A DNA stretch of 55,505 bases from Deferrisomatales bacterium (GCA_033551855.1 JAWSUI010000023.1:1-55505); one strand, 5' to 3'. Shown: positions 27,233 to 55,505, counted from the stretch's first letter. Notes: generated by a model from the letters alone, not told the origin. Translations and numbers: made by a program.

Positions 27233-27883
27233 ATGCCCCAGTTCTCGACCCTCCTGTGGGAGATCGCCATCGTGGCGTTCCCCGTGTTGCTGGCCATTAC
27301 GTTCCACGAGGCCGCCCACGGGTACGCCGCCGACCGCCTGGGCGACCCCACCGCCCGGCGGGCGGGCCGCCTCAGCCTCAACCCGCTGCGCCACCTGGAC
27401 CCGGCGGGCACCCTCGTGTTCGTCGTGACCCGGATGATCGGCTGGGCGAAGCCTGTCCCCGTCAATCCGGTGTACTTTCGGCATCCCCGGCGAGACATGC
27501 TCTGGGTGGCCGTCGCGGGGCCGGCGGCCAACCTGGCCCTCGCGGCCGCGTTTGCCTTTGTCCACAACCTGTTGAGCCTGGGGGCGCCTGGGGGGCGGGG
27601 GGAGGCTTGGGGATTCCTCCTGGCCGTTTCCCGGGTAGGAGTCCTGGTGAACCTGGGGCTCGGGATCTTCAATCTGCTCCCGATCCCGCCCCTGGACGGG
27701 AGCCGCATCCTCGCCGGAATCCTGCCGACCCGGGCGGCAGGGGCGGTCTATCGCATGGAACGGTATGGCTTCGTGCTGCTGTTGCTGGTGGTGTTCTCCG
27801 GCGCCCTCGAGCACACCCTGTACCCGATCCTGCGGGTGGCGGCCCGGGCCCTCCTCGGGGCGCCGCCCGTCCTGGGGGGATGA
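27233..27883 (+). CDS. Site-2 protease family (M50) membrane metalloprotease
   Basis: HEAAHG, GRLSLNPLRHLDP, GWAKPVPVN, AGPAAN, NLLPIPPLDG. Confidence 0.94.
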   Translation: MPQFSTLLWEIAIVAFPVLLAITFHEAAHGYAADRLGDPTARRAGRLSLNPLRHLDPAGTLVFVVTRMIGWAKPVPVNPVYFRHPRRDMLWVAVAGPAANLALAAAFAFVHNLLSLGAPGGRGEAWGFLLAVSRVGVLVNLGLGIFNLLPIPPLDGSRILAGILPTRAAGAVYRMERYGFVLLLLVVFSGALEHTLYPILRVAARALLGAPPVLGG

Positions 27884-28659
27884 TGACCGAAGCGAACGCG
27901 GGCATCCTGTTCGAGGAGGGGCACACGTACAAGGTGCGGCTGGAGGGGTTCGAGGGCCCCCTGGCCCTGCTCCTGCACCTCATCCGCAAGCACCGCTACG
28001 ACATCTACGACATCCCGATCGCGCGCATCCTGGAAGAGTATCTGCAGGCGCTCGAGTGGATGCGGGAGCTGGACCTGGACCTCGCGGGAGATTTCCTCGT
28101 CATGGCCGCGACCCTGGCAGAGATCAAGTCCCGCATGCTCCTGCCGGTGCCCGAGGAGCTCGAGCAGGAGGAAGGGGAGGGGGAGGATCCTCGGGCGGAG
28201 TTGGTGCGCCGGCTGCTGGAGTACGAGAGGATGAGGGAAGCGGCGCTGGGCCTCGAGTCTCTGCCCCAACTCGGCCGAGACGTCTTCTCCCGGTCCGGGC
28301 CGTCGCCGGAGCTCGACGAACTGGTCGGCACGGAGGTCCCCCTGGAGCTGGATCTCTTCCAATTGCTGCTGGCACTGAAGGGAGTCCTCGAGGGCGCCTC
28401 GGAGGAGCACGTGCACGAGGTGGTGCGCCAGCGGGTGTCCATCCAGGAGGCGATCCAGGACGTACTCGACCGCCTGCGGGGGCTGGCTCCGGGGACGGGT
28501 TTGCGCTTCGAGGACCTCTTTCCCCCTCGGCCGTCGCGGTCGCGGGTCGTGGCGACCTTCCTGGCGCTTCTGGAGCTGGTGCGGTTGAGGGCCCTGCGCG
28601 TCGTGCAGGCGGCCCCCTTCGCCGAAATCCGGGTGTACGCCGTGCCGTCGGAGGAGTGA
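27880..28659 (+). CDS. scpA: Segregation and condensation protein A
   Basis: FEGPLALLLHLI, FLVMAATLAEIKSRMLLP, EDPRAELVRRLLEY, TFLALLEL. Confidence 0.95.
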   Translation: MMTEANAGILFEEGHTYKVRLEGFEGPLALLLHLIRKHRYDIYDIPIARILEEYLQALEWMRELDLDLAGDFLVMAATLAEIKSRMLLPVPEELEQEEGEGEDPRAELVRRLLEYERMREAALGLESLPQLGRDVFSRSGPSPELDELVGTEVPLELDLFQLLLALKGVLEGASEEHVHEVVRQRVSIQEAIQDVLDRLRGLAPGTGLRFEDLFPPRPSRSRVVATFLALLELVRLRALRVVQAAPFAEIRVYAVPSEE

Positions 28660-29301
28660 TTGGACACCGAGCGGATCATACGGATCCTGGAGGCGCTGCT
28701 CCTGGTCTCCCCGGAGCCCGTGCCGCTGGCCCGCCTGGAGGAGGTCTTCGCCCCCGACGGGGTGCCGGGGGAGAGGGTGCGGCAGGCACTGGCGGTGTTG
28801 GGTGATCGGTGCAAAGGGCGCGGTGTGGAGGTTCGGGAGGTGGCGGGCGGGTACCAGCTACGCACGAGACCGGACGTGGCCCCTTGGCTGGCCCGGCTCG
28901 AAGCGCCCAAGGCCGCGCGCTTTTCCCGCCCGGCCCTCGAGGTGCTGGCCATCGTTGCCTACCGCCAGCCGGTGACGCGGGCGGAGGTGGAGGAGGTGCG
29001 GGGCGTCGACTGCGGGGGGGTGCTCAAGACCCTTCTCGACAAGGGGCTCGTTCGGATCCTCGGAAAGAAGGACGTGGCGGGCCGGCCGTTGCTCTACGGC
29101 ACCAGCCGGAAGTTCCTGGAGTCCTTTGGGCTGTCTTCCCTGGCGGATCTGCCGAGTCTCCGGGACATCGAGGACCTCCTCGCCGAGCGTGCCGAGGCGG
29201 TCATCGATGACGGCACCCTGTCGGGGGGAGGGACCTCCCCCGAAGAGGGTCCCTTCGAGGGCGACGTCTTCGCCGGACCGGGAGAGCCCCGTGCCCCTTG
29301 A
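28660..29301 (+). CDS. scpB: Segregation and condensation protein B
   Basis: LEALLL, EVAGGYQLRT, ALEVLAIVAYRQPVTRAEVEEVRGV, GRPLLYGT..FL..FGL..L.DLP. Confidence 0.95.
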   Translation: MDTERIIRILEALLLVSPEPVPLARLEEVFAPDGVPGERVRQALAVLGDRCKGRGVEVREVAGGYQLRTRPDVAPWLARLEAPKAARFSRPALEVLAIVAYRQPVTRAEVEEVRGVDCGGVLKTLLDKGLVRILGKKDVAGRPLLYGTSRKFLESFGLSSLADLPSLRDIEDLLAERAEAVIDDGTLSGGGTSPEEGPFEGDVFAGPGEPRAP

Positions 29302-33427: not shown

Positions 33428-33785
33428 GGAAGGAGGGAGGGCGGGCAGCCGCCCCGGAAACGGGGAGGAAAGTCCGGGCTCCATAGGGCAGGGTGCTGGG
33501 TAACCCCCAGTCGGGGTGACCCGAAGGAAAGTGCAACAGAGAGCAGACCGCCGGGCTTCGGCCCGGTGAGGGTGAAACGGTGAGGTAAGAGCTCACCAGC
33601 GGCCCGGGCGACCGGGTCGGCTCGGCAAACCCCACCCGGAGCAAGACCAAATAGGGGAGCGCTACGAGGGCTGCCCGCCCCAGGCTCCCGGGTAGGTCGC
33701 TCGAGGCCTCGGGAGACCGAGGTCCCAGAGGAATGGCTGCCGCCCCGCGAGGGGCACAGAACCCGGCTTACAGCCCTCCCTTCCC
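33428..33785 (+). ncRNA. rnpB: RNase P RNA (type A)
   Basis: GAGGAAAGTCCGGGCTCC, GAAAGTGCAACAGA, GGTGAAACGG, GGCAAACCCC..GGAGCAAG, ACAGAACCCGGCTTA; complementary ends GGGAGGGC/GCCCTCCC. Confidence 0.96.
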
Positions 33786-33914
33786 TCCACCCGTCTCCAT
33801 CTCGCCTCCCGTCGGATCGCTGGCCGTCCGGCCTGGGAGGTCGAACCGAGGAGGCGGTCGTCACGATGGGGCGTGGGTGCGATCCCCGGGCGCCCGGCGC
33901 GAGAGGGGTTTGCG

Positions 33915-40523: not shown

Positions 40524-40953
40524 CCTGGATTCATCGGAAGGCGCCGTCGGCAAGCGGAGTCCCGAAGCCCCTCCGTATTGGTTCTTCCGGTAAGCGACCG
40601 GGTGGTCCCGCCCACCCCGGCAGACGAGGCCGGGCTGCACGGTAGGTGCGCTGCCCCGCCGCATCCGGAATCCTCGCGACATCGCGACTCCCGAAGCGGC
40701 TGCTTGCGGCGAGCGGCCGTCCGCCCACGTGTTCGGGCCCACCCGATCGTCCCTGGACACGACTACCCGGTCATTTCCCGGATGATCCTTCGTCTTGCCC
40801 CGCAGTCCGCGGCAATTCGAGGAAGTGTCCCAGCGATCCGCGGTGCGTCGGGCATCACCGGCTTGCGCCGGCCTCGTCGACTCGGTGGATGCGGTGCGGG
40901 GCTGCACTCCTGGTCTCCCGGACTCCGCCCCACAATGTGGTGGTGGATTTTGG
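40524..40953. mobile_element. MITE family 1 copy with nested module D
   Basis: Ends CCTGGATTCATC and GGTGGATTTTGG; flanks CCGG/CCGA; 40861-40950 nearly identical to 3017-3105. Confidence 0.75.
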
Positions 40954-41397: not shown

Positions 41398-41600
41398 CTA
41401 GCACGGCAACGAGCGATCGTTTCTCCGCGGGCGTTCGGCGTGAAACCTTCCCTCCGGCGGGCAGGATCCCGGCGCGCAGCGCAGCCCGCGAGGCTGTTTC
41501 GAGCGACCCTATGGCCGTTCGGTGTGCCCAGAGCCTCGCTCCAGGGCCGCCTGCCCGCTCTCCAGGACGGCCCCGCGCCCGACTCTGACGCAACCCTCGC
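41398..41600. repeat. MITE-like repeat family 2, second copy (inverted)
   Basis: Aligns with the reverse complement of 26450-26647. Confidence 0.7.
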
Positions 41601-47050: not shown

Positions 47051-47117
47051 CCTGACACAGGGGGGGACCGCCGGACAAGTATTCCACTTCAAGCGACAAA
47101 TACCCTGACACAGGGGG
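47051..47117. repeat. Two direct copies of CCTGACACAGGGGG (each containing the palindrome CCTG-ACA-CAGG) at the island boundary
   Basis: 47051-47064 and 47104-47117, separated by a more AT-rich spacer. Confidence 0.7.
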
Positions 47118-47263
47118 AGGGCGAGTACGAGGTGTATCGCAAGACGCAGGACGCCGAGTACCTCTCGGACTTCGACCGCGTTGTCGAGGAGACCAAACGG
47201 CTCGAAGGCAAGGAGGAACCTAGGACTCTCGGTTCGGGCAAAGGGGAGGACTCCGATGCATGA
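47117..47263 (+). pseudogene. 3' remnant of a RhuM-family gene
   Basis: Frame reads EGEYEVYRKTQDAEYLSDFDRVVEETKRL...*, like the RhuM C-terminal EYExY/F..QD...SDFD motif; no start codon; stop overlaps mukF ATG (ATGCATGA). Confidence 0.6.
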
Positions 47264-48566
47264 GAGCACGGATCTGCATCGCGTCCTCGGGGCCCTGCAC
47301 CAGGCGCGGGCGGCCCTCGACCTCGACACCGCGCATCTCTGCTACCTCATCACGCTGCGGGTCCGGGCAGAGCGCGGGAACCTGGCCTCGCTCACGGAGG
47401 ACGAGCTGGTGGACCTGTACCTGCAGGTCTGCGAGCTCGTCGATCCGGACGCGGTCAACCCGCGAAAGCGCGCGACCCATGCGATCCAGCACCTGCGCGA
47501 CCACCGCCTGCTCCGGCGCGTGGACGGCGCCGGCCTGGTCCGCGCGGGTGAGTACACGCTCACCCGCCTCGCGACCGCCATCGTCGACTTCTTCATCGAG
47601 GACGAGACCCTGACCCGGGAGAGCCTGGTGGTCCTGACCCGCGCCCTCACGTCTCAGCTCGGCACCGTGCTGGCCGACGCGCGCAAGGCCGAGACCGAGG
47701 AGGCGTGGCGCAGCCAGGTGGTCGAGCCGCTCCGGGTCACGGTGAGCGACCTCGTCTCCGGCATCGAGCGGCGCCAGCGTGGGATGGACGCCCAGCAGGA
47801 GGAGGTGCGGGAGCGCATCGGCTCGCTGCTCCAGGAGGACTGGTTCGCCGCGGTCGGCGACTGCGAGCAGCTGCTCGACGACACGTCGACGACGCTGCGG
47901 GAGCTGGGCGAGGTGCTGCTGCGAGACAGCGCCCACCTGCAGGCGCTGCTGCAGGACATCGAGCAGGTCGCGACCGAGGCCCGTGCGGACGAGGCCGCTC
48001 TCCAGGCACAGAAGGTCCAGGAGCACCTGGACCGCGTGACGGCGTGGGGTGGAGACCGGCAGCGCGCCTGGTCGGACTACTACCAGTTCGTGCAGCGGTA
48101 TCTGCGCGGCGTCGTGCGCCTCGACCCCGATCGCGCGGTCAGCCAACGCCTCCGCGACCAGCTCGTCGCCTGGCTGGACAAGCCTTTCGCGCTCAACGCT
48201 GCGCAAGAGCCGTCCATCCGGCTCCTGCGCGATGACCAGGCCAAGGTCGATCGGCCACCGGTAACCCGACCCCGGCGGGATCGTGAGTGTGCCCCCGAGG
48301 TCGTCCCGCCCGATCCGGCACCAGTCGCGCTCGAGGAGCGGGTCGACGCGGCGCTCGCCGACGGGCTCGCGAGCCTCGTGGCGGTGACGGCGCAAGTGCT
48401 ACAAGTAGTGCCTGGACCTGAGCGATACCGCACCGCAGGGCGCACGGCCGAGCTGGTGGCGGCGCGTGCCCGCGTGTCCTCGCCGCTGGAGCGCTCGTGG
48501 GAGCGGCTGGATGCGCTCGACATGGAGCTGCAAGACTGGCGGCTCGATTCCGGGGGACGGTCGTGA
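47256..48566 (+). CDS. mukF: MukF kleisin
   Basis: RATHAIQHLRDHRLL, YTLTRLATAIVDFFI, QRGMDAQQEEVRERIGSLLQEDWFAAVGDCEQLLDDTSTTLREL parallel E. coli MukF segments as recalled (RANNAIN, YRLTPLG, QRLMDEQQ..DWRAAISSCELLL). Confidence 0.88.
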   Translation: MHESTDLHRVLGALHQARAALDLDTAHLCYLITLRVRAERGNLASLTEDELVDLYLQVCELVDPDAVNPRKRATHAIQHLRDHRLLRRVDGAGLVRAGEYTLTRLATAIVDFFIEDETLTRESLVVLTRALTSQLGTVLADARKAETEEAWRSQVVEPLRVTVSDLVSGIERRQRGMDAQQEEVRERIGSLLQEDWFAAVGDCEQLLDDTSTTLRELGEVLLRDSAHLQALLQDIEQVATEARADEAALQAQKVQEHLDRVTAWGGDRQRAWSDYYQFVQRYLRGVVRLDPDRAVSQRLRDQLVAWLDKPFALNAAQEPSIRLLRDDQAKVDRPPVTRPRRDRECAPEVVPPDPAPVALEERVDAALADGLASLVAVTAQVLQVVPGPERYRTAGRTAELVAARARVSSPLERSWERLDALDMELQDWRLDSGGRS

Positions 48567-49249
48567 TCGAGCAACCCTACACGTCGCTGGAGGATGTCAT
48601 CCAGGACCCCGTCTTCCCGGACGTGGATCTCGCCTTGCGCCGGGGGCGGCACATCGACCTGGACGACTCCCAGTGGTTCGCGTTCCTGGCCGAGGCGCAG
48701 AGCCACCTGGAGCTCTTCTACCGCCGGTTCGGCTCGGAGCTGATCCGCGTCGCGGACGGCTACTTCTATCTCCTGCCGTCCGGCGATCGCCTGGGTCGCC
48801 GGCAGCTCTCGCGAGGCGAGATGCTCGTGGGCCAGGGGCTCGCCCTCCTGTACCTGGACCCTGCGACCGTGAAGGCCGCCGGCGTGGTTCCGCCGGCGCA
48901 GCTCCTCGAGCTGCTGGTGAGCCTCGTCGGCCAGGAGCGGCTCGTGGTCACCCTGAACTTCCGCAAGAACCCGCCCAAGGACGCGCGCATCGCGGAGGAG
49001 ATGGCCCGCAAAGAGATCGCCAAGGCGCTGCGTGGTCTGGAGAGGCTCGGTTTTGTGGAGCGCCTTCCCGATGACCTGCTCCGACTCCGGACGCCGCTCA
49101 TGCGCTTCACCGATCCCGTGCGAGGCCTTGCCGATCCGGCGCAGGCGCTCGCTCGGCTCGTCGAACGCGGGGAGGTGACGACCGAGACCGAGGTGATCGG
49201 CGATCAGGACGAGAACGGCGCCGCGGAAGACGAGGAGAACGGGGAGTGA
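48563..49249 (+). CDS. mukE: MukE KITE subunit
   Basis: FPDVDLALRRGRHI, FYRRFGSELIRVADGYFYLLP, EMLVGQGLALLYLDP; GTGA overlaps on both sides. Confidence 0.9.
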   Translation: MIEQPYTSLEDVIQDPVFPDVDLALRRGRHIDLDDSQWFAFLAEAQSHLELFYRRFGSELIRVADGYFYLLPSGDRLGRRQLSRGEMLVGQGLALLYLDPATVKAAGVVPPAQLLELLVSLVGQERLVVTLNFRKNPPKDARIAEEMARKEIAKALRGLERLGFVERLPDDLLRLRTPLMRFTDPVRGLADPAQALARLVERGEVTTETEVIGDQDENGAAEDEENGE

Positions 49250-52200
49250 AGCGGACCCGCGCCCAGGCCTTGGCCCTCGTCAACTGGAAGGGCGTGTTCT
49301 ACGAGCGGTACCTGCTCGACGATCACGTGACCGCCCTGGAAGGGGCCAACGGCGCGGGCAAGACCACGGTGATGATCGCCGCCTATGTCGTGCTGCTTCC
49401 CGACATGACGCGCCTCAGGTTCACCAACCTGGGCGAGTCTGCGGCCACCGGCGGCGACAAGGGGATCTATGGGCGTCTCGGGGACCCGGACAGCCCCTCG
49501 TATGCCGCCATCGACTTTCGACTCGGCAGTGGCGAGCGCCTGCTTGCGGGGGTTCTCCTCGAGCGGCGCTCGGAGCCCACGGTGGAGCTGACGCCGTTCG
49601 TGGCCAGCGGCCTGCGCGAGGACGCCGCCCTTCAGGATGTCCTGCTCGACCGCGGCGAGCTGGACGCGGTGCCCGATCTCAACCGGCTGCGGGAGCTCGT
49701 CGCGCTCGGCGGTGGCCGGCTGCACACGTTTTCCAAGGCCGGCGACTACTTCGCCGATCTCTTCGATCGGGGCGTGACGCCCTTGCGGCTGACCGGCGAC
49801 GAGGAGCGGACGAAGCTCAACGAGATGCTGCGCACCAGCATGGTCGGCGGGATCTCGCGCGCGCTCACGGGCGGGTTGCGCGAGTTTCTCCTGAAGGCCG
49901 AGACCGGCCTCGCGGACACGTTGAAGCGCATGCGGGGCAACCTCGACGCCTGCCGCCGGACACGGATCGAGGTGGAGACGGCCCAGCGCATGGAGCAGGA
50001 GATCCACGGTGTCTACGAGGCCGGCCAGGAGATGTTCGTGGCTGCCGTGCACGCCACGCGAGAGCGAGCCGAAGAGCTTCACCAGCGCCTGCAGCGAGCG
50101 CAGGCCGGGCTGGAGCTTGGCGAGAGGGAGGAGCGCGCGCTGGCAGCCTCGCTCGAGGAGAAGACGGGCGAGCACGAGGCGGCGAGGCGAGAGCTTTCGA
50201 GCGTCCATGACGAGCTCGAGCAGGCCCGGGAGCTGCTCGCGCGAATCCGAGCGGCCAACGAGATCGCAAGGCGAATCAAGCGACGCGAGGACGAGCGGGT
50301 CGACCTCGCGGCCAGCGAAACGCAGAAGCGCTCGGTGCGCGAGAAGCGGCACGAAGGACGAGAGCGGGCCCGAAAGCGCCGAGCAGGGGCCCAGGAGCAG
50401 GTCAAGGTGGCCTCACACGGCCTGGCGGACTTCCAGGAGGGCCTGGACGAACTGCACCGCCGCGCGGCTGCCTTCGAGCAGGTATCGAGGCGCCTGGCAG
50501 ACGCCCGCGCCGGGCTTCCGGAGCATGACGTCGGACCGGGCAACGTCTCCGAGGTTCGCGCCATCTGCGAGCAGCGGATAGGCGGGCAGGACGCGGCGAT
50601 CGTGCGTCTGGACAGAGACCTGGCGACCGTGCGGCAGCGACGAGCCGAGCACGAACGGGTCACCGCCGCCCTGGTCCATCTGACCGGAGACACGGTGGAC
50701 GCGGACAGCGCCCTGCAAGTCGCGCGGCAGGCATTGCGGGAGCTGCGGGGGCTCGAATCCCTGGTCGCAGAGCTCCCCGAGCTCCCCGCTCGGCTCGATC
50801 GGGCTCGGGAGCTGGCTGAGCACCAGCATCGCGTGCGAGAGACCGCTCGTGGCCTGGAGGCCCCGGACCAGCCGCTCGCGACTGCGCAAGCGGTTCGCGA
50901 GGCGTTCGCCGCCGCTGATGCAGCGCTCGAGGCGGTCCGTCGCGAGTTGTCGGACAGCCGCGCCCGCATCGAGGAAACCGCGGCCGAGCGCAAACAAGGA
51001 GAGAAGGAGATCGCCGACCTCGAGTCGTTGCTCCCAAGATGGAGGGACGCTCGCGATCGGGCACAGGCGCTCGAGGCCTCCTGGGAGCAGCCGCTGAAGG
51101 GCGAGGCGGACATCGAGACACTCCAGTCGGTTCTGCTGGAGAAGCGCGACAGCCTGAACGGGCACATCGACAAGGTGCAGACACGCGTTCGAGACCTCGT
51201 GGAAATGGCGGACCAGCTCGAGCACAGCGGTGGCCAGTTCAGCACCGAGCTGCTCCGGGCACGCGACGCCGTGGAGGGCGAGCTGCTGGCCGGGCACTTC
51301 GACGACGTACCCGTCGAAGAGGCGGGCCGCTTGCAGGCCGTGCTCGGGCCGTTCGCCGAGGCGATCGTCGTGGACGACGTGGTACAGGCCGCGCGCAGGT
51401 TGGCAGGTGAGGCGGTACGCCCGGACACCGTCTGGCTGGTGGACGAGTCCACGACCCTCGTGAGCGACCCTGCCGAGGCCGGTGCGGAGCATGTCGACGA
51501 GAACGTGCTCGTTGCCGCGCCGTCCGGCTCGCGTCTGACTCGTATCCCGGAGCGCCCCACCCTGGGTCGTCGGGCCAGGACCCAGCGGGTCCGGGAGGTG
51601 CGAGCGGAGGTCGAGCGGCTGGAGAGCGAGATCACCAGCGTTCGTGCCGACGAGCGACGGGTCGGCGAGGCACTGGCGAGCGCCCGCAAGCTGCTGGCCG
51701 AGTCGTCTCTTCTCACGCGGGAGGATCCCCAGCCCGAGCTCACGGAGGCGCGCAAGCGAGTTGCGGCTGCGATCCGGCGCGATCGCGATCTTTCGGGACG
51801 AGCCGAGATGCTGCGAGCGCGGGCCGGCAAGCTCACGACCCGTCGCGAATCGCTCGGGAACCTGCTTGCGGATTCGCACTTGCTGGACCTGCAGGATCAA
51901 GACGATGTCGTCCGCGCGCTGGGCAGCCGGCTGTCGGAGGCGCGGGCGGCGAAGGAGCGCTTGGAGCGGGCAGCTCCTCACATCGCCACCGTGGAGGACG
52001 GGTTCGACATCCTTCGCGCTCCCCCTCCGACAGACGATGAGCTGCGCCGGATCCGCGCCGACCTCGATGCGGCTCGCGAGAGACGCGACCGGCTGTCCGG
52101 GCCGCTCGACTCGCTGAGATATGTCGAGGATCACCTGCCTGAGCTCGGCTGGTCCGATGCACCGGCTGCGCTTGCAGAGAAACAGACGCTGCGCCCGGCG

Positions 52201-53664
52201 TTGGAAGAACAGGTTCGAGCGGCGGAAGCCGATCTGGGGCGCGCCGAAGAGGGCGAACGAGCCGCGGAGACAGCGCTCGAAGACGCGGTGGTGGCCGCAC
52301 AGAAGGCTCAGGCGGCTCTGGACCAGCTCGATGCCGCCCTGGATCTGGATCGGAAGCAGCTCGCGGAGAGCGGAATCGCTCATGCTAGCGACGAGGCGGT
52401 CGCTACCGCGGAGCATCACCACCGAGCGCTGCGAGACTGCGCATCCGGTTTGGACGAACGGGAGCGGACGCTGGCCAGCGAGGTGGCCGAGGCGAAGGTT
52501 CGGCACGAGCAGCAGGCCGAGGACGTCATTAAGCTTCGCGCTGTCCGAGAGGACGAAGAGGCCCAGTGGCGACCCGTCGCGGATCGCTGGCAGCGTCTTC
52601 AAACCGAGGCCGCAGAGGCGGGAGTCCTGCATAGTGCGATGACGCCGGAGATCATCGCGCGCACCCGTTCGGCCGGCTCGGTCAACCTGTATCAGGAGGC
52701 CCGCAGCAGAGGCGACGTCCTGGCCGAGCGGCTCGCGCACTCGGAGGGCGGAGGAGAGCACGCCGAGACCATCAACTCCTGGCTGGCACAGGCAAGCCAG
52801 GACTTCGGCTTGGCCTACCTGCGCGCCTGGCTCGACGCCCGCGATTGGCTCCGCCGCCGCGTGCCTCCACAGATCGCAGAGGTGGACGACCCCCTCGAGA
52901 CGCTCGCCCGCGTCCGGGAGCACCTGGGACGCCTGCAGGAGCGCCTCGCCCAGCAGGAGAAGAACCTGCGCGGGCAGTCAGAGGATGTTGCGCGCAACAT
53001 CGAGACCCAGCGCCGCAAGGCCCGGCGGGAGGTCGGGCGGCTCAACAACGAGCTGGAGATCGTCGGCTTCGGCAGCATCCACGGGGTGCGGATACAGGTG
53101 CGTCCCGTGGAGAGCCGGGAGCGAGTTCTTCGCGCGTTGCGCGAGGGAGAGGCGCAGCAGCTCCTCTTCCAGTCGGAGATGCCGATCGAAGAGGCCATGG
53201 ACGAGCTGTTCAAGCGCTACGGCGGCGGTCAGACCGGTGGGCAGCGCCTGCTCGATTACCGTGAGTACCTGGATCTGCAGGTCGAGGTGCGTCGCCAGGC
53301 CAGCCCGGACTGGGAGCTGGCCAACCCGACCCGCATGTCCACCGGAGAGGCCATCGGCGTGGGCGCCGCGATCATGATGGTCGTGCTGACCGCCTGGGAG
53401 CGCCACGCGAACCTGCTCCGTGCCAAGCGGTCGGCGGGCACGTTGCGGCTCCTCTTCCTCGACGAGGCGAACCGCCTGTCCCAGGACAACCTGGGCGTCC
53501 TCTTCGAGCTGTGCCAAGGCCTCGAGCTGCAGCTCCTCATCGCTGCTCCCGAGGTGGCGCAGGCCGAGGGAAACACGACTTATCACCTGGTCAGGCAGAT
53601 CGATGACGATGGACGGGAGGTCGTCCGGGTGGCAGGGCGCCGCACGCCGCAAGGAGACGCCTGA
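49246..53664 (+). CDS. mukB: MukB SMC ATPase (1472 aa)
   Basis: LVNWKG..GANGAGKTT..LLPDMTRLRFTN..GDKG; MukB-type hinge LLAGHFDDV..GP..AIVV and PTLGRRAR; LLDYREYL, MSTGEAIG, LLFLDEA, LFELC..LQLLIAAPE. Confidence 0.93.
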   Translation: MKRTRAQALALVNWKGVFYERYLLDDHVTALEGANGAGKTTVMIAAYVVLLPDMTRLRFTNLGESAATGGDKGIYGRLGDPDSPSYAAIDFRLGSGERLLAGVLLERRSEPTVELTPFVASGLREDAALQDVLLDRGELDAVPDLNRLRELVALGGGRLHTFSKAGDYFADLFDRGVTPLRLTGDEERTKLNEMLRTSMVGGISRALTGGLREFLLKAETGLADTLKRMRGNLDACRRTRIEVETAQRMEQEIHGVYEAGQEMFVAAVHATRERAEELHQRLQRAQAGLELGEREERALAASLEEKTGEHEAARRELSSVHDELEQARELLARIRAANEIARRIKRREDERVDLAASETQKRSVREKRHEGRERARKRRAGAQEQVKVASHGLADFQEGLDELHRRAAAFEQVSRRLADARAGLPEHDVGPGNVSEVRAICEQRIGGQDAAIVRLDRDLATVRQRRAEHERVTAALVHLTGDTVDADSALQVARQALRELRGLESLVAELPELPARLDRARELAEHQHRVRETARGLEAPDQPLATAQAVREAFAAADAALEAVRRELSDSRARIEETAAERKQGEKEIADLESLLPRWRDARDRAQALEASWEQPLKGEADIETLQSVLLEKRDSLNGHIDKVQTRVRDLVEMADQLEHSGGQFSTELLRARDAVEGELLAGHFDDVPVEEAGRLQAVLGPFAEAIVVDDVVQAARRLAGEAVRPDTVWLVDESTTLVSDPAEAGAEHVDENVLVAAPSGSRLTRIPERPTLGRRARTQRVREVRAEVERLESEITSVRADERRVGEALASARKLLAESSLLTREDPQPELTEARKRVAAAIRRDRDLSGRAEMLRARAGKLTTRRESLGNLLADSHLLDLQDQDDVVRALGSRLSEARAAKERLERAAPHIATVEDGFDILRAPPPTDDELRRIRADLDAARERRDRLSGPLDSLRYVEDHLPELGWSDAPAALAEKQTLRPALEEQVRAAEADLGRAEEGERAAETALEDAVVAAQKAQAALDQLDAALDLDRKQLAESGIAHASDEAVATAEHHHRALRDCASGLDERERTLASEVAEAKVRHEQQAEDVIKLRAVREDEEAQWRPVADRWQRLQTEAAEAGVLHSAMTPEIIARTRSAGSVNLYQEARSRGDVLAERLAHSEGGGEHAETINSWLAQASQDFGLAYLRAWLDARDWLRRRVPPQIAEVDDPLETLARVREHLGRLQERLAQQEKNLRGQSEDVARNIETQRRKARREVGRLNNELEIVGFGSIHGVRIQVRPVESRERVLRALREGEAQQLLFQSEMPIEEAMDELFKRYGGGQTGGQRLLDYREYLDLQVEVRRQASPDWELANPTRMSTGEAIGVGAAIMMVVLTAWERHANLLRAKRSAGTLRLLFLDEANRLSQDNLGVLFELCQGLELQLLIAAPEVAQAEGNTTYHLVRQIDDDGREVVRVAGRRTPQGDA

Positions 53665-54644
53665 TGTGGAGCGACGAGGCACATCGCCTTGCCCTGCTGG
53701 AGCTGTGGGCCACGGGCTGCCTCAAGCGCCGCAAGAACCAGGGTGACGCATGGTACGAGCTCTCGGAGTTGCCTTGGACTCGGCGCACATCCCGCAGGGA
53801 TGAGCTGGCCTTGGACGAGGGCCACCGCCGCGACCTCGAGCGGCTTCTCGACCGTAGCTGGCCGGACTGGAGAGATCTCCTGACGGAGCTCGAGCGCCAT
53901 GACCTGTCCTTAGACCTCCATGGGTGGAAGACACTCCAGCAGCGCCGACGAGCAGACGGTTTGCCCGAGATTCTCCCCGATCGGCTGAACCAACGGACGG
54001 CTACGGCCGCGCTCGGGAGCCACTCGAAGGCTACCCTCGGTGAGCGCCTGCGGCAGGCGCTCGGCCCACTCGAGGTGACAAGGGATGGCCTCATCCGCAT
54101 CCGTCCGAACGAGGGACTGCTCGTCGAGCGCGGCAGTGAGACGTGGAGCGCTACGATGCTCGCGGGCTTTCTCGGCGAGCTTGCCCTGACCGAGCGGGCA
54201 CTCCGCGATGGCACGACCCTTGGCGGCACGCTGCCCACCGCGCTACTGCTCGTGGAGAACGTGGGCTTCTACATCGACGTCCCGGCTCCTCCTCGTTGGA
54301 TGGTGGCCCACGTCCCGGGCTGGAACACGGCGACCACCCGGCTGCTGTTCGACGCCCTCCCCACGGTGCCGGTTGTCCACTTCGGCGACCTCGACCCGAA
54401 CGGCGTGCGAATCGTCGCCCATCTCCAGCTCCTGCGCCCCGACCTCCTGTGGGCCGTTCCCGACTTCTGGGAAGAACAGATCTCTCTGCGTGGACTGCGG
54501 TGTGACTGGCCGAGCGACCTCGACCTGACCGCCGCACCTGCACTCGTGCAGCGGCTGGCAAGGGAAGGCATGTGGCTGGAGCAGGAAGCCCTGGCGCTCG
54601 ACCCGAGGTTGACCGGCTACCTCAAGGAGATCCTGTCGTCATGA
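53664..54644 (+). CDS. jetD: Wadjet JetD/MksG-like Toprim (DUF2220-type) nuclease
   Basis: LLVEN, PGWN, VHFGDLDPNG (DxD), C-terminal WLEQE; TGATG coupling to mukB. Confidence 0.82.
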   Translation: MWSDEAHRLALLELWATGCLKRRKNQGDAWYELSELPWTRRTSRRDELALDEGHRRDLERLLDRSWPDWRDLLTELERHDLSLDLHGWKTLQQRRRADGLPEILPDRLNQRTATAALGSHSKATLGERLRQALGPLEVTRDGLIRIRPNEGLLVERGSETWSATMLAGFLGELALTERALRDGTTLGGTLPTALLLVENVGFYIDVPAPPRWMVAHVPGWNTATTRLLFDALPTVPVVHFGDLDPNGVRIVAHLQLLRPDLLWAVPDFWEEQISLRGLRCDWPSDLDLTAAPALVQRLAREGMWLEQEALALDPRLTGYLKEILSS

Positions 54645-54773
54645 AACCGTCGCTCGGGTGGGCCGGCCTGTCGCGCATCGCACTCAAGCGGGCCGAGGCG
54701 CAGCTAATGGCAGACAGCCAGGGGGTCCGCGACGAAGTCGGCGTGCCCGCGGTCCACATGGCCTACGCAAACC
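54641..54773 (+). pseudogene. 5' fragment of a DUF6361-like gene truncated by IS insertion
   Basis: MKPSLGWAGLSRIALKRAEAQL...GVRDEVGV..VHMAYAN resembles the family start (xGW..S....RA.......RDExG...I..AFAxxxFPG); ATGA overlap with jetD. Confidence 0.65.
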
Positions 54774-55063
54774 CAGCATTGTCCGGTTAGGTTCTTGCAG
54801 CAGTCGGGTATCGGCCGGGTTCGTGCGGTGACTCTGGGACAGGGGGATCTGGCTCCATCTGGGCAGCCTCGTTCTCGATCTTGTTGCGAAGCTCGCGAAC
54901 GCGCCGGATGCTGACCTTCTCCCCGTACTCCTCGTGGCAGTAGATGGCGAGCAGCAGATACGTGATCAACCCGGCGAGAATCTGGACCATCACCCCGTGC
55001 CGGCTGCGGGAGATCAGGTGATAGACCTTCAGATGGCGCTTCCACCACCTGAAGAAGATTTCG
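54774..55063 (-). mobile_element. IS4-family element, right end and transposase C-terminal fragment (54787-55063)
   Basis: EIFFRWWKRHLKVYHL...MVQILAGLITYLLL is the DDE catalytic-E helix region; probable terminus CAGCATTGTCCGGTTAG at 54774. Confidence 0.75.
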
Positions 55064-55505
55064 TAGGTAGTTGAGTTTCAAGGTTACCGGTCGTAAACCT
55101 TCGCCTTTAGGCGGAATTGCTTCAGCGGGTCTTTCCTCGTAAGGTTGGGTGGACGGCCGACGAGGAGGGATCGAAGGATGGCGGAATAACCGGAAGGGCG
55201 CGCACACGGTCCACGACATCAAGTATCACTTCGTGTGGGTGACGAAGTACCGGTACCAAGTGTTGCGGGGGGAGGTCGCGGAGAGAACGCGAGATCTGAT
55301 CCGCCAGGTGGGCATGGCACGGGAGATCACCATCCTGAAGGGGCACGTGAGTCGGGACCATGTTCACCTGTACGTGTCGGCGACACCGAATCCGAGCCCA
55401 GCTCGGATCATGCAATATGTGAAGGGGAAGTCGTCGAGGATCTTGCAGCAAGAGTATCCCGCGCTTCGAAAGAGGTATTGGGGACAACACATCTGGGCTC
55501 GAGGC
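55064..55505 (+). mobile_element. tnpA: IS200/IS605-family element, left end and tnpA (frameshifted at codon 4, runs off window)
   Basis: Subterminal hairpin TTCGCC-TTTA-GGCGGA; ATG 55178; GAHTVHDIKYHFVWVTKYR, HUH motif DHVHL, KGKSSR, YWGQHIWARG. Confidence 0.88.

Follow-up and report, generated by a model that had tools for sequence, protein, structure and literature searches.

Wadjet systems of types I and II are described to extrude DNA loops, to stall and to cleave circular DNA (bioRxiv 2023.11.03.565488, 2025.03.10.642339, 2022.10.04.510915; PMC10586767), and the characterised Wadjets restrict circular plasmids (bioRxiv 2022.10.04.510915, 2023.11.03.565488). MukBEF has been placed in the Wadjet group as a member lacking MksG, with nuclease loss mapped on the tree (Burmann et al. 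2025, Cell, PMC7617805), and its origin from Wadjet is called an open hypothesis in reviews and in bioRxiv 2025.03.10.642339. Data S1 of PMC7617805 lists FEBG operons of Sorangium (So ce56, CAN95856-9; So0157-2, AGP36472-5). It also holds rows for Bradymonas, Vibrio natriegens, V. parahaemolyticus and Shewanella, which are likened to the operon described below by size only, and the sole Aeromonas row found there is a shorter-SMC operon.

We analyzed a window of 55,505 nucleotides, the whole stretch of DNA considered here, from a Deferrisomatales bacterium (GCA_033551855.1, JAWSUI010000023.1). Four overlapping plus-strand ORFs at 47256-54644 encode MukF-, MukE- and MukB-family proteins followed by a nuclease. 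The two Sorangium FEBG rows of PMC7617805 are identical to loci L011 and L018 of our survey, with agreeing coordinates. The four-gene Muk-clade operon is therefore already present in a published data table and is not new, and the possibility of an undescribed subtype, raised in the original prediction, has to be given up. The main text of Burmann et al. 2025 (PMC7617805), in the part examined, contains neither a name nor a test for this clade, and full-text literature searches, in which subscription papers are thinly covered, returned no paper naming or testing it.

Operon layout, motor subunits and nuclease

The features of the window that are relevant here are the following:

27880..29301, plus strand: scpA-scpB of the host housekeeping condensin, outside the operon (Pfam SMC_ScpA 119 bits, SMC_ScpB 174 bits)
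47100..47263, plus strand: probable remnant of the 3' part of an upstream gene that was lost (open frame that runs into the mukF ATG)
47256..48566, plus strand: MukF-family kleisin (JetA/MksF role), 436 aa (Pfam, NCBIfam, identity to E. coli)
48563..49249, plus strand: MukE-family KITE subunit (JetB/MksE role), 228 aa (Pfam; start by codon model and GTGA overlap)
49246..53664, plus strand: MukB-family SMC ATPase, 1472 aa (NCBIfam MukB, PDB sequence matches, site alignment)
53664..54644, plus strand: short JetD/MksG-type Toprim nuclease, 326 aa (predicted structure, fold matches, motif alignment)
54770..55505, no strand assigned: IS debris 3' of the operon, a repeated element end and then an IS200-type transposase (contig-end matches, Y1_Tnp)

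As originally predicted, the four genes are joined by start/stop overlaps (GTGA at the F/E and E/B junctions, TGATG between B and the nuclease gene). For mukE, the ORF list also contains an earlier GTG at 48497; the start at 48563 was preferred on the basis of the codon model and the GTGA overlap. The stop of the upstream remnant overlaps the mukF start, and a partial copy of the remnant is found on contig C2. The remnant may resemble RhuM, a label that found no support in Pfam. Downstream of the operon, the repeated element end (54774-54849) matches several contig ends, and the transposase (55149-55505) scores 114 bits with Y1_Tnp (Pfam). The window additionally contains an RNase P RNA gene (33433-33786), tRNA-Met (31317), tRNA-Glu (40332), and dispersed non-coding repeat families at 40580-40788, 40787-40950 and 41400-41600, which have about 78, 64 and 18 near-full genome copies, respectively, and no Rfam match.

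The kleisin matched KicB, MukF_M and MukF_C of Pfam (43, 102 and 28 bits) and the NCBIfam MukF model with 335 bits, under the cut-off of 407. Likewise, the KITE subunit matched MukE and MksE of Pfam (124 and 107 bits) and the NCBIfam MukE model with 121 bits, under the cut-off of 250. The SMC protein (Pfam MukB N-terminal, 239 bits; MukB_hinge, 112 bits) was the only subunit that passed an equivalog cut-off (NCBIfam MukB, 934 bits; cut-off 699). All seven of its matches among PDB sequences were MukB, and the site alignment revealed intact Walker A, signature and Walker B motifs and a MukB-type hinge. With PADLOC-DB 2.0.0, the best JetC score of the SMC was 60 bits, JetC1 (best E 3e-17) covered the C-terminal head only, and no JetC2 model matched. 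No JetA match was obtained on the kleisin and no JetB match on the KITE subunit, the sole JetB match being a weak one on the kleisin, and the nuclease reached 26 bits with its best JetD model (JetD1, E 1e-6). Judged by these profiles, the operon is not captured by the PADLOC type I-III Wadjet models. The predicted Muk-clade rather than JetC-like motor, including the MukB hinge and the SMC length of 1472 aa, was thus confirmed.

The prediction had also described a match to E. coli MukF, MukE and MukB "motif by motif". Here, the family assignment stands, whereas the closeness was overstated, because global identity to the E. coli proteins is only 27% (F), 33% (E) and 28% (B), and some sites of MukB proper are absent. 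The positions of the AcpP-binding MukB residues K1114, R1122 and K1125 (PMC8602292) read A, T and A in the operon SMC, in a coiled-coil alignment that is approximate. By the same approximate alignment, all three basic residues were found in 0/14 four-gene proteins compared to 17/26 proteins of MukB proper. The larynx insert of MukB proper carrying Q1327/R1328 (PMC8669397) is missing as well.

The fourth protein lies barely above the Pfam cut-off for JetD_C (24.1 versus 22 bits). Its structure model, built from 104 homologues (pLDDT 92), comprises a winged-helix-like N-terminal part (residues ~1-70), a linker/CAP-like part and a Toprim domain (~140-326). The best fold match was MksG of C. glutamicum (8B7F; Z 15.5, rmsd 2.7, 164 aligned), the second TopoVI-A (2ZBK; Z 15.1, rmsd 4.9, 242 aligned); P. 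aeruginosa JetD (7TIL) was matched with an E value of 3e-6. The modelled fold thus agrees with the JetD-like nature proposed for this protein. The Toprim E, DxD and C-terminal ExE motifs, which had been read from the sequence, correspond to E198, D242, D244, E306 and E308 and are invariant in 104/104 aligned homologues. Profile alignment to 8B7F equates E198 and D242 with MksG E236 and D279, the mutation of which cripples cleavage (PMC10123090); E306/E308, located outside this alignment, were equated with MksG E349/E351 by motif. W220 occupies the position of the proposed Y258 in MksG, and, at 326 aa, the chain falls short of the 365-374 residues modelled in solved JetD/MksG chains. For residues 1-70, generic winged helices were the only matches (Z up to 6.3), and the match list of the N-terminal model is without JetD/MksG, although such an absence is uninformative.

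In type I Wadjet, the nuclease docks on the SMC larynx via the aCAP domain. In the family studied here, an LLF motif in the SMC larynx is invariant (48/48), but it is also kept in nuclease-less relatives. The predicted complex of the nuclease with two MukB head halves scored 0.10 compared to a mark of 0.32, which weighs neither way.

Genomic context, distribution and proposed function

The host genome is 100% complete and encodes a complete Smc-ScpAB: contig C56 carries the entire smc (1071 bits), and scpA and scpB lie in the window. MatP was not found in this genome. The operon is not the housekeeping condensin of its host. A MukB domain was detected in 0/60 host relatives, including two congeners, one of which carries identical yitT-DUF1847 genes followed by unrelated genes, without the operon. 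The gene upstream of the Deferrisomatales operon is DUF1847, and no cmoM is present there. GC3 is 0.83 for B and 0.81 for the nuclease gene compared to 0.90-0.92 in five host genes, and the values of F and E (0.89) are near those of the host. These observations support an accessory and patchy operon, which most likely is mobile and was acquired horizontally.

In order to find relatives, one genome per species was scanned, which yielded 234 matches; the best 80 were analyzed and come from Myxococcota, Planctomycetota, several groups of proteobacteria, Spirochaetota and others. Of these 80 loci, 17 were uninformative, being interrupted by a contig end or a broken frame. Across the 63 informative loci among the best 80 of 234 matches, mukFEB is followed directly by the nuclease gene in 50, while the nuclease is missing in 13 (one truncated). 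Smc was found in 29/32 chosen carrier genomes, and in 14/14 with an intact-length nuclease in a four-gene operon. No relative of the operon was found among viral contigs. Cultured carriers include Sorangium, Stutzerimonas stutzeri TS44, Pseudomonas lini and Burkholderia pyrrocinia, whose megaplasmid copy adjoins CBASS-type genes. One operon copy is located on an 880-kb plasmid, which fits a size limit for cleavage and also a segregation role.

We then inspected the surroundings of 30 loci with all four genes and of 10 without the nuclease, picked for long flanks, and judged their PADLOC matches by eye, leaving out generic ones (kinases, sigma factors, sigma-54 activators, IscS, partial matches). 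Clear defence neighbours, namely AbiE, Gabija, type I restriction-modification, Lamassu, SoFic and PDC candidates, were present at 16/30 four-gene loci compared to 0/10 nuclease-less loci (Fisher p 0.003, a value that overstates the difference, since the groups differ in taxonomy and the loci are not independent). The remaining 14/30 four-gene loci have no clear defence neighbour, and the Deferrisomatales operon itself has no defence genes among its own neighbours. At two Myxococcota-type loci, Lamassu lmuA and lmuC lie just upstream of the operon (L048, 2601-4120; L051, 2619-4120), so that two SMC-type defence systems are adjacent.

We favour, with a probability of roughly 70%, the interpretation that the operon is a mobile Wadjet of the Muk clade and acts in anti-plasmid defence by cutting circular plasmids. 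It would represent a horizontally acquired defence operon of the Wadjet group, in FEBG/JetABCD order, with a motor from the MukBEF clade. By analogy with type I and II Wadjets, a kleisin-linked motor dimer would load on DNA and extrude a loop. On a small circle, the motor would run out of DNA, stall and bend the last stretch, which a nuclease dimer would then cut by metal-dependent hydrolysis using E198, D242 and D244 with E306/E308. The chromosome would be spared, being too large for full extrusion. This interpretation is favoured by the fixed gene order, the invariant catalytic residues, Smc-ScpAB beside the operon, the missing MatP, the 0/60 host relatives with a MukB domain, the lower GC3 of B and of the nuclease gene, the defence neighbours in relatives and the correlation of nuclease with motor distances (see below). 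Against it speak the lack of defence genes beside the Deferrisomatales operon, the shorter nuclease, W220 at the position of Y258 and the host-like GC3 of F and E, as well as the 13/63 informative loci without nuclease, which indicate that the motor persists without it.

Some of these features would also suit a second condensin working on the chromosome or a megaplasmid, similar to Pseudomonas MksBEF, with a nuclease for decatenation or repair and not for defence. We consider this rather unlikely. MukB-length arms and a MukB hinge, the TopoVI-A fold match that ties with MksG, the repeated disappearance of the nuclease from lineages that retain the motor, and the nuclease kept in housekeeping-context Aeromonas-type loci (see below) are in line with such a role; yet it is difficult to reconcile with the full Smc-ScpAB of the host, the patchy spread across phyla, the defence neighbours in relatives, and the missing AcpP triad and MatP. 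There is a slim chance that the system defends mainly against circular phage or integrative-element intermediates, possibly together with neighbours such as Lamassu or CBASS. The AbiE, Gabija, type I restriction-modification, Lamassu and CBASS-type neighbours could be seen in this light, but genes of this kind mark defence islands in general, and the characterised Wadjets act on circular plasmids.

Phylogeny and the fate of the nuclease

The motor tree was calculated with a mixture model from SMC head regions, using 57 of 99 aligned rows. MukB proper forms one clade (100/100), which does not include the Deferrisomatales SMC; the nearest rows outside it are the metagenomic P0267 (98/97) and then the P0260 group (94/86). 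Outgroups were Smc and eight genomic proteins matched by a single JetC1 model; they include no verified JetC of type II or III. The eight JetC-model matches form a group of their own (97/93) with very long branches, and the operon SMC, which falls outside that group, is accordingly MukB-like and far from these JetC proteins. The root of the tree is weak (71/66), and AU tests (29 rows) rejected neither "MukB sister to all MukB-likes" (p 0.235) nor an alternative root, which joins the Deferrisomatales branch to JetC (p 0.08). In the head tree, the operon lineage is placed as a cousin of MukB proper and not as a demonstrated ancestor. The idea of an intermediate in the sense of a direct ancestor consequently finds no support, given this position and the weak root. 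Under the preferred interpretation, the lineage would share an ancestor with housekeeping MukBEF and would retain the four-gene state that is the probable source of MukBEF. An affiliation of L097 nearer to MukB than the Deferrisomatales SMC, seen in a first tree, was dropped, as later trees did not hold it. A metagenome scan aimed at the branches nearest to MukB proper (P0267, P0260, P0265, P0272, P0247, P0254, P0255, P0266) yielded three loci, none of them from those branches.

In 24 pairs of nuclease and motor, which are not independent of each other, the distances of the two proteins are correlated (rho 0.84). The nucleases from genomes with MukB proper fall into a single deep clade (94/99), paralleling the motor tree. 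The original prediction had left open whether the nuclease was kept or regained. The former holds up better, since the nuclease tree follows the motor tree. It is hardly plausible that a housekeeping MukBEF escaped from gammaproteobacteria and later picked up a JetD gene: the weak roots and the AU tests leave room for it, but MukB proper is a tight clade inside a far more diverse MukB-like set, and its nucleases run parallel to the motors.

In the order to which canonical MukB belongs, a nuclease profile matched 17/401 genomes. In genome G652 (L158), an intact-motif nuclease is located directly behind mukB, the product of which is 49% identical to that of E. coli. In Aeromonas-type genomes, including A. 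caviae KAM479 (L177), an intact-motif nuclease lies 2.4-10 kb behind cmoM-mukFEB. Overall, the nuclease-keeping loci in canonical context (L158-L163, L166, L168, L177) encode MukB proteins about 50% identical to that of E. coli. In the family of the Aeromonas-type genomes, 40/91 genomes match the nuclease; at 25 other canonical mukFEB loci, no nuclease was found within 1.5 kb. Among nuclease-bearing MukB-proper genomes, Smc was found in 6/9 and MatP in 0/5. At the gene level, the premise that MukBEF has no nuclease partner therefore fails for Aeromonas-type genomes, in which an intact nuclease is kept. These nucleases may still work with MukBEF as candidate partners. The data fit co-descent of nuclease and motor with later loss. 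A point against this is that several losses would be needed, because a basal position of the Aeromonas-type clade in MukB proper is not clear.

Two further observations were made in these genomes. Aeromonas-type genomes encode a conserved nuclease paralogue from which the Toprim E, DxD and ExE residues are missing (L155, L156, L173), and some of them carry an intact copy at another place. In G591 and G543 (L169, L172), the nuclease gene adjoins fumarase-pabB-LysR genes as in G652; mukFEB is located elsewhere in these two genomes, and no Smc was found in them.

Nuclease-less branches also occur among the four-gene relatives. One is a Myxococcota mukFEB-like clade (97/91; L063, L071, L072, L074, L076, L081, L082 and others), another the pair L025/L077 (100/100) close to the Deferrisomatales branch; no member of the nuclease family was found genome-wide in the hosts of either. 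In one family of the Myxococcota clade, MukB was matched in 19/101 genomes and the nuclease in three, and the hosts keep Smc. The topology indicates that the nuclease-less state evolved anew in Myxococcota-like hosts. No Smc, ScpA or ScpB was found in the genomes carrying L025 (G061), L077 (G069) and L047 (G085), the last of which has a truncated nuclease start. Smc and ScpB were likewise not found in five further members of the G069 family, three of them without a MukB match. In this family, mostly represented by draft assemblies, Smc was found in 0/7 tested genomes and MukB in 4/8. A clean replacement of Smc by Muk is weakened, since Smc and ScpB were not found in 3/3 tested members without a MukB match either, and is only a lead.

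These data tentatively suggest, at somewhat less than even odds in our estimate, that the Muk-clade Wadjets form a living series of condensin domestication. In a first stage, represented by the Deferrisomatales operon, a mobile four-gene defence operon would exist beside Smc-ScpAB. In a second, cmoM-mukFEB would be fixed with a still active nuclease, with Smc and without MatP, as in Aeromonas-type genomes, and in a third, nuclease and Smc would be lost, as in E. coli. The path would have restarted independently in Myxococcota-like hosts, including a branch near the Deferrisomatales operon in a host family in which no Smc-ScpAB was found. If this series is true, a true MukBEF may still cut plasmids, as the second stage keeps an active nuclease.

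The clade makes the Wadjet origin of MukBEF testable, as cultured carriers are available. MukBEF structures can serve as templates for models of its motor, subunits could be exchanged with those of E. coli MukBEF, and arms of about MukB length would put to the test how the plasmid size limit depends on arm length. Defence surveys probably miss the operon, since the PADLOC-DB 2.0.0 models match it poorly, and annotations probably mislabel it as chromosome-partition MukBEF.

Comparison with known systems

The closest described relatives are the Sorangium FEBG operons, which are equal to the Deferrisomatales operon in gene order and similar in size (4.4-kb mksB, ~970-990-bp mksG); their proteins are 45-60% identical to those studied here. 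With MukBEF of E. coli and Photorhabdus, the operon shares gene order, subunit sizes, MukF/E/B domains, the MukB hinge and head motifs. In contrast to E. coli MukBEF, it has a fourth, nuclease gene and no cmoM, shows the low identity of 27-33%, and lacks the AcpP residues and the larynx insert; its host is without MatP, and it coexists with Smc-ScpAB. It is not a member of MukBEF proper.

Type I Wadjets (JetABCD of E. coli GF4-3 and P. aeruginosa, MksBEFG of C. glutamicum) have the kleisin-KITE-SMC-nuclease order, the Toprim fold and the acidic catalytic residues in common with the operon. However, the operon SMC has a MukB hinge and is ~350 residues longer than the JetC models, and the nuclease is shorter with a different N-terminal part. 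The type II system JET-II of Neobacillus vireti shares a compact MukB-like hinge and is reported to have a MukBEF-like dimer geometry (bioRxiv 2025.03.10.642339). It possesses a tandem KITE compared to the single 228-aa MukE-type chain found here, where JetC2 is not matched. By gene set and nuclease motifs, the operon can be assigned to the broad Wadjet group (MksBEFG/JetABCD), from which we infer a Wadjet-like action. Overall, it appears to be a real and widespread Wadjet variant on a MukBEF-type motor that probably functions as other Wadjets do.
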